This document shows, one piece after another, positions 3,744-5,723 of a DNA stretch of 64,000 nucleotides (its first letter is position 1; each line of letters opens with the position of its first letter). Position numbers and translations under genes: made by a program. The notes under the pieces were generated by a model, which was not told where the DNA came from, made no database searches, and saw only the letters and a list, made by a program, of their open reading frames with translations. The stretch is taken from sequence record PQ666539; one strand, written 5' to 3'. Origin of the DNA: Shigella phage sb1.

Positions 3744-5723
3744 ATGGCTTTATTATCTCCGGGCATTGAGCTCAAAGAAACTACGGTTCAAAGCACCGTT
3801 GTTAATAACTCTACTGGTACAGCAGCTTTGGCCGGTAAATTCCAGTGGGGTCCTGCTTTTCAAATTAAACAGGTTACAAATGAAGTAGATTTAGTTAATA
3901 CTTTTGGTCAACCTACAGCTGAAACTGCTGACTATTTTATGTCTGCAATGAATTTCTTACAATATGGAAATGATTTGCGAGTCGTACGCGCTGTCGATAG
4001 AGATACCGCTAAAAACTCATCTCCGATTGCTGGTAATATTGAATACACTATTTCTACTCCAGGTAGTAACTACGCGGTTGGAGATAAAATCACGGTTAAT
4101 TATGTTTCAGAAGATGTTGAAACATAATGTAAAGTTACCGAAGTAGATGCTGATGGAAAAATTAAGAAAATTAATATTCCTACCGCAAAAATTATCGCTA
4201 AAGCAAAAGAAGTAGGCGAATATCCAGCATTAGGTTCTAATTGGACCGCGGAAATTTCTTCGTCTTCCTCTGGTTTAGCCGCAGTAATAACTCTTGGAAA
4301 AATTATTACTGATTCTGGTATTTTATTAGCTGAAATTGAAAATGCCGAAGCTGCTATGACAGCGGTTGAATTTCAGGCAAATCTCGAAAAATATGGAATT
4401 CCAGGAGTAGTAGCTCTTTATCCGGGTGAGTTGGGCGATAAAATTGAAATTGAAATCGTATCTAAAGCTGACTACGCAAAAGGGGCTTCTGCATTACTCC
4501 CAATTTATCCAGGTGGCGGAACACGCGCATCTACTGCCAAAGCAGTGTTTGGATATGGACCACAAACTGACTCGCAATACGCTATCATAGTTCGTCGCAA
4601 TGATGCTATTGTTCAAAGCGTTGTTCTTTCAACAAAGCGTGGCGAAAAAGATATTTACGATAGTAACATCTATATTGACGACTTTTTCGCAAAAGGTGGT
4701 TCAGAATATATTTTCGCAACTGCACAAAACTGGCCAGAAGGCTTCTCTGGAATTTTAACTCTGTCTGGTGGATTATCATCAAATGCTGAAGTAACAGCAG
4801 GAGATTTGATGGAAGCTTGGGACTTCTTTGCTGACCGTGAATCTGTTGATGTTCAGTTGTTTATTGCGGGTTCTTGTGCCGGTGAATCTTTAGAAACAGC
4901 ATCTACTGTCCAAAAACACGTCGTTTCAATTGGAGATGCTCGCCAAGATTGCTTAGTACTGTGCTCACCACCGCGTGAAACTGTTGTTGGAATTCCTGTA
5001 ACTCGCGCTGTTGATAACTTAGTCAATTGGAGAACTGCAGCAGGTTCATACACTGATAATAACTTTAATATCAGTTCAACCTATGCAGCAATCGATGGTA
5101 ACTACAAGTATCAGTATGACAAATATAATGATGTAAATCGTTGGGTTCCATTAGCAGCTGACATTGCTGGTTTATGCGCAAGAACTGATAACATTTCTCA
5201 GACTTGGATGTCTCCGGCTGGTTATAATCGTGGCCAGATTCTTAACGTTATTAAACTTGCTATTGAAACTCGCCAGGCACAGCGCGACCGTTTATATCAA
5301 GAAGCTATCAACCCAGTAACTGGTACAGGTGGTGATGGTTACGTATTGTATGGTGATAAAACAGCTACTTCTGTTCCTTCTCCATTTGATCGTATTAACG
5401 TTCGTCGTCTGTTTAATATGTTGAAAACGAATATCGGACGTAGTTCAAAATATCGTTTATTCGAATTAAACAACGCGTTTACTCGTTCATCGTTCCGCAC
5501 AGAAACAGCCCAATACTTACAGGGAATTAAAGCTCTCGGTGGAATTTATGAATATCGTGTAGTTTGCGATACAACAAATAACACTCCGTCAGTAATTGAT
5601 AGAAATGAGTTTGTTGCAACATTCTACATTCAACCGGCTAGAAGCATTAACTACATTACCTTAAACTTCGTAGCAACTGCTACTGGTGCAGATTTCGATG
5701 AGTTAACTGGTCTTGCAGGTTAA
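3744..5723 (+). CDS. 18: Tail sheath protein gp18, interrupted by in-frame TAA at 4125-4127
   Basis: Two same-frame pieces total 659 aa (T4 gp18 length); C-terminal sequence recognised. Confidence 0.9.

Follow-up and report, generated by a model that had tools for sequence, protein, structure and literature searches.

The in-frame TAA at positions 4125-4127 of the tail sheath gene 18 is very probably a G>T error. It would belong to an unselected layer of G:C>T:A changes that arose in the making of the sequence record and not in the evolution of the phage. The window, which means the whole stretch of 64,000 nucleotides that was analysed, corresponded to the gene 14/15 to gene 37 segment of a T4-like genome. 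It was identified as a pSs-1-like Tequatrovirus with 96-97% identity to Shigella phage pSs-1 and related genomes. In the proposed explanation, a single G>T would have turned GAA (Glu128) into TAA in an otherwise intact T4-type gene 18. The G:C>T:A layer would have entered when the record was produced, through damaged template, base calling, or assembly. In the real phage, codon 128 is most likely GAA and the sheath protein a normal one of 659 aa.

Gene 18 was located at 3744..5723 on the plus strand, between genes 17 and 19 as in the relatives. Its reading frame was not uninterrupted as written. Translation of 3744-5723 in one frame gave 659 sense-equivalent positions and the terminal TAA, and the sole internal stop was at 4125-4127 (plus strand), where G>T at 4125 changed codon 128 from GAA to the ochre codon. 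An in-frame TAA at this place had been claimed in the sequence-only reading, and it was present exactly there. Two ORFs of the gene were called on the plus strand. The N-terminal fragment (3744..4127) consisted of 127 aa and the TAA. The second ORF (4356..5723), of 455 aa and the stop, began at the internal Met205 of gp18 and was an artefact of ORF calling. Both ORFs were in the identical reading frame. The 228 nt between them (4128..4355, plus strand) contained 76 open codons, which corresponded to gp18 residues 129-204, the remainder of domain I, with neither a stop nor an in-frame ATG, GTG, or TTG. The codon sum was 127 + 1 + 76 + 455 = 659, which is the length of T4 gp18. The sequence-only reading was therefore right in placing both ORFs in one frame, in describing the intervening 228 nt as open and sheath-like, and in giving a total equal to that of T4 gp18.

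The translation with the stop masked as X was compared with T4 gp18 by a phmmer search against PDB (entries 9mkb and 3j2m). Residues 1-659 were aligned to 1-659 without gaps, with 1444 bits, and the stop fell on Glu128. Five Pfam families, all above cut-offs, were found in order across the two pieces, namely Gp18_domIII_N, Gp18_dom_I, Phage_sheath_domII, Phage_sheath_1, and Phage_sheath_1C. In the case of Gp18_dom_I, the first third, up to position 31 of the 93 in the profile, was located before the stop, and profile positions 35-93 resumed directly after it. Reinitiation right behind the stop was considered as a candidate and rejected, since the overlapping ATG (4127-4129) was out of frame and was followed immediately by TAA. 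Another window-private G>T was observed at 4100 on the plus strand, 25 nt upstream of the stop, where AAG was changed to AAT (Lys119Asn). The broken frame of gene 18 is almost certainly an error of the record and not a property of the gene.

Codon 128 was then compared with that of other phages. In a 141-nt alignment around the stop with six close relatives, GAA was found in Killian, sb3, vB_SsoM_113, PBM-1, and sb4, and TAA was found in sb2. The sole difference from the close relatives at this codon was G>T at 4125. The 60-nt haplotype around it was present in 52 records of the phage collection. Only sb2 showed a 100% match, and the other 51 differed by one base. The TAA was thus not conserved, being present in 1 of the 52 haplotype records and 1 of the 6 aligned relatives. 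Exact 34-mer scans of IMG/VR matched neither the TAA allele nor the GAA allele and were hence uninformative. In the protein collection, no identical sequence was present for the 127-aa ORF, the 455-aa ORF, or gp19. In all relatives examined other than sb2, gene 18 was one gene of 659 codons. In the annotation of sb2, the sheath was divided into two CDSs at the base where the window is interrupted, and the second piece was cut again by a private C>A stop (window position 5567). The claim that there was a single interrupted gene 18, not two separate genes, was upheld, the only seeming counter-case being the split annotation in sb2, a genome with the G:C>T:A error signature of the window and from the same laboratory as its probable source, Shigella phage sb1 (ADG1).

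The stop was not special to gene 18. All annotated pSs-1 proteins were compared with the 64-kb window using tblastn, and 33 in-frame stops (25 TAA, 5 TGA, and 3 TAG) were found, spread over about 23 genes. They replaced Glu (21), Gly (4), Ser (4), Tyr (2), Leu (1), and Val (1). The genes bearing stops were 16, 17 (two stops), 18, 22 (two), 23, uvsW.1, uvsY, 51, 27 (two), 29, 48, alt, alc (two), the spanin gene, rnlA (two), nrdA (two, adjacent), 32, 34 (four), 35, 36, and several small ORFs. Genes 16, 17, 18, 22, 23, 27, 29, 32, 34-36, 48, and 51 are essential in T4. A phage with the genome as written could not form plaques. Frameshifts were not found in this survey, and every pSs-1 protein aligned as one full-length piece.

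In addition to the gene 18 stop, 32 stops were recorded, and nearly all of them resulted from a single G>T or C>A. With minus-strand stops given by the highest base of the codon, they were located at 1858, 2975, 3461, 10042, 10312, 11617, 19075, 20143, 21609, 22634, 23075, 23897, 25684, 29451, 43019, 43198, 43384, 44240, 44393, 48399, 48402, 53212, 56717, 56786, 57647, 59156, 60109, and 61230, together with others. In gene 17, which encodes the large terminase, TGA (2975..2977, plus strand) replaced Gly366 of pSs-1, and a window-private change of GAA (Glu528) gave TAA (3461..3463, plus strand). In gene 23, which encodes the major capsid protein, TAA (11617..11619, plus strand) was located at Leu274 of pSs-1. 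Two adjacent TAA codons were found in nrdA at Glu124 and Glu125 (48397..48402, minus strand), where the change at 48399 was common to the window and sb4.

The substitutions of the window were polarised using four relatives (pSs-1, sb2, YwIITB1, and ECp13). There were 632 window-private substitutions, and 206 of them were G:C>T:A changes (104 G>T and 102 C>A). The share of this class among private changes was compared using six relatives. It was 36% in the window, 25% in sb4, and 17% in sb2, followed by 10% in ECp13, 8% in YwIITB1, and 5% in both pSs-1 and sb3. The window differed from pSs-1 with a Fisher P = 1e-22, and the class was in about sevenfold excess in the window. About 200 such changes hit roughly 1.1% of the G:C pairs of the window. 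Their density was even along the window, and no trinucleotide preference was detected, either for an 8-oxoG-like CCG motif or for any other context. At short range, the sites were clustered, with 49 gaps of 30 nt or less vs 27.5 ± 4.6 expected. The G>T pair at 4100 and 4125 in gene 18 is an example of this clustering. Few indels were found relative to the relatives. The G+C content of the window was 35.87%, compared to 36.10-36.22% in the homologous stretches of relatives, and it became 36.28% when the private G:C>T:A changes were reverted.

The coding effects of the 206 private G:C>T:A changes were compared with those of every G:C>T:A change that could occur in these genes, and the window-private transitions were put through the same comparison. 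In the case of G:C>T:A, 16 noncoding, 147 missense, 23 nonsense, and 20 synonymous changes were observed, vs 15.1, 151.2, 22.7, and 17.0 expected, respectively (chi-square P = 0.87). In the case of transitions, the observed numbers were 16 noncoding, 59 missense, 0 nonsense, and 234 synonymous, vs 24.7, 183.2, 6.2, and 95.0 expected (P = 5e-64). The transitions of the window were therefore under strong purifying selection, whereas the G:C>T:A layer showed no such imprint. Its effects fitted the expectation without selection, and it was never tested by phage growth.

A similar pattern was observed in two genomes from the laboratory of the probable source. The genomes sb2, sb3, and sb4 were deposited together by one laboratory, and in the NCBI taxonomy sb1 stands beside them. 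Relative to four clean relatives, 218 derived G:C>T:A sites were counted in the window, 134 in sb4, and 46 in sb2, and sb3, from the same batch, looked clean. In sb4 (PQ666542), genes 14, 15, 16, rnlB, uvsW, 26, 27, 28, 48, alt, ligase, rnlA, nrdA, and others were split. The published values were 164,945 bp, 35.16% G+C, the lowest, and 285 CDSs for ADG1, which is PQ666539; 35.35% G+C and 291 CDSs for TMC4, which is sb4; and 35.49-35.52% G+C and 254-255 CDSs for sb2 and sb3 (PMC11993411). The window is probably sb1 (ADG1), a circumstantial identification with which these values and the lowered G+C of the window agree.

The error-like sites were partly shared. Among the 218 sites of the window, 16 were common to sb2, 17 to sb4, and 7 to both. 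Chance sharing was expected at 0.6 sites for sb2 and 1.8 for sb4 (Poisson P = 1e-17 and 1e-11, respectively). The shared sites formed clusters at 8954/8962/8981, 13682-13733, 23036-23058, and 43015-43042. The 16 sites shared with sb2 were 11 missense, 3 noncoding, 1 synonymous, and 1 nonsense, the last being the gene 18 stop. The stops at 43019 and 48399 were among the sites common to the window and sb4, and most stop sites differed among the window, sb2, and sb4. Since sb2 shared clustered error sites with the window, its TAA was not an independent confirmation of the gene 18 stop. Clustered errors across samples point to a cause at the level of the run or pipeline and not to shared ancestry. 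Possible causes of the sharing are error-rich reads or k-mers that entered several assemblies, site-specific miscalls, and read mixing.

As for the technical cause, two options were considered for the layer. Under two-colour Illumina chemistry, G>T and C>A both correspond to spurious signal in the T/A channel. Spurious T/A calls on such an instrument at low effective coverage might accordingly have given the layer. The other option is 8-oxoG-type damage, which may have been amplified from few templates. The genomes sb1-sb4 were obtained by CTAB extraction, Twist libraries with enzymatic fragmentation (50 ng, with PCR), NovaSeq 6000 sequencing, and SKESA assembly (PMC11993411). For the C>A/G>T artefact that 8-oxoG causes in library preparation, acoustic shearing was identified as the origin, and the affected alleles are normally present at a low fraction (Costello et al. 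2013, PMC3616734). For such damage to reach a consensus, an extra condition is therefore needed, such as few templates, a library of low complexity, read mixing, or low effective coverage. Miscalling of glucosyl-hydroxymethylcytosine in nanopore reads was rejected as a cause, since there were essentially no indels and no context dependence, and the probable source was sequenced with Illumina only. Natural pseudogene decay was also rejected, since it would have brought indels and transitions, not a pure G:C>T:A layer.

Other readings of the stop were weighed against a record error. A genuine ochre allele, kept by a suppressor tRNA or host or by co-infection with wild type and shared with sb2 by descent or recombination, would explain why the same G>T is found in a second deposited genome. 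Nonsense mutations in essential T4 genes are well known from classical work, and phages that carry them are viable on suppressor hosts. However, this G>T is one of the G:C>T:A changes, which are about sevenfold overrepresented and have the coding effects predicted in the absence of selection. The genome that shares it is from the same batch and has 15 other error-like G:C>T:A sites in common with the window, vs 0.6 expected. In addition, the 33 stops comprise all three stop codons and replace E, G, S, Y, and L codons, which is more than one suppressor could rescue, and in E. coli no termination context is more efficient than TAA with a following T. A tRNA scan of the 64-kb window found none; the T4-like tRNA cluster lies outside the window. 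Among the ten tRNAs that the sibling phages were reported to have, none had a suppressor anticodon (PMC11993411). A genuine allele is thus highly improbable. It is likewise highly improbable that the gene 18 ochre alone is real, persisting in a mixed T4-like population through complementation at high multiplicity or through some low-level readthrough, while the other stops are errors.

Programmed recoding, either by stop-codon readthrough or by an alternative code that reads a stop as an amino acid, would account for the many in-frame stops in late structural genes, none of which is accompanied by a frameshift. However, all three stop codons occur in frame and stand at codons of six amino acids (E, G, S, Y, L, and V), and TAA is also the codon with which gene 18 and its neighbours normally end. 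The stop is missing from 51 of the 52 records with the same local haplotype, and the frequency of stops is exactly as predicted from random G:C>T:A hits. A suppressor tRNA was found neither in the window nor among the ten reported for the siblings. These points leave recoding hardly credible. The same low standing applies to a truly split sheath, in which pieces of 127 aa and 455 aa are expressed as two separate genes, as sb2 is annotated. Such a sheath would lose residues 129-204, given that 4128-4355 has no in-frame start, yet those 76 codons are intact and nearly identical to those of relatives. Pfam domain I would be cut midway, a single gene of 659 codons is present in every other relative examined, and even in sb2 the second piece is shortened further by its private C>A stop at 5567. 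An error introduced in making the record is the reading that we retain.

Several neighbouring observations were made. An ORF on the plus strand at 5724-6380, between genes 18 and 19 ('19.1', 205-218 aa, phrog_5104), had no Pfam match. Cys-rich and H-N-H-like motifs were recognised in it by eye, and a homing endonuclease is annotated here in phage ADUt. Phage Killian has no counterpart of this ORF, and its genes 18 and 19 are separated by 117 nt. The ORF was probably inserted as a mobile homing endonuclease, and its presence probably varies among T4-like phages. Some other public records were also unusual. The 32-kb record MG010123.1, named 'Staphylococcus phage SAJK-IND', carries T4-type genes 17 and 18 that are 96.6% identical to the window, and it is probably mislabelled or contaminated. 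The annotation of YwIITB1 (PQ356294) contains a split major capsid protein, hoc, and nrdB, and that of ECp13 (PP274704) contains a split rnlA. Given that the G:C>T:A share in these two genomes was only 8-10%, their splits may have a cause different from that in the window. The paper on sb1-sb4 places these genomes of ~165 kb in 'Tunavirus' (PMC11993411); by sequence, they are T4-like Tequatrovirus (Straboviridae), nearest to pSs-1.

The gene 18 stop has no biological significance, and its value is that of a flag for data quality. The window and the records sb2 (PQ666540), sb4 (PQ666542), and probably sb1 (PQ666539) contain roughly 1% G:C>T:A errors. Such errors break essential genes into pieces, raise the number of genes called, lower G+C, and create spurious 'hypothetical proteins'. 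These records should be treated as corrupted when they are used in protein families, in screens for pseudogenes or recoding, and in training data. The test used here is reusable. The coding effects of one substitution class are compared with the no-selection expectation, beside transitions of the same lineage, and errors are thereby separated from real divergence.

Finally, the window was compared with known systems. The gene 18 product resembles T4 gp18 (PDB 3J2M/3J2N, 3FOA, and 9MKB) in its 659 codons, gapless alignment with very high identity, five Pfam domains, and position between genes 17 and 19. It differs in that codon 128 is TAA, not GAA, and in the private G>T that gives Lys119Asn. 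The genomes sb2 (PQ666540) and sb4 (PQ666542) resemble the window as pSs-1-like Tequatrovirus from one laboratory with an excess of G:C>T:A and split essential genes, and sb2 has the identical gene 18 TAA. However, they have fewer G:C>T:A sites, 46 and 134, respectively, than the 218 of the window. The 8-oxoG artefact (PMC3616734) is similar in its substitution class, its non-biological origin, and its appearance across samples of one batch. In contrast, the changes in the window are in the assembled consensus, show no trinucleotide preference, are clustered, and are shared between samples, and the artefact arose with acoustic shearing, whereas the probable source of the window was fragmented enzymatically. 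The classical amber and ochre mutants of T4 are like the window in having a stop codon within an essential late gene of a T-even phage. Those conditional-lethal mutants, however, have one defined stop or a few and depend on a suppressor host, whereas the window contains 33 stops, of all three kinds, distributed over about 23 genes.
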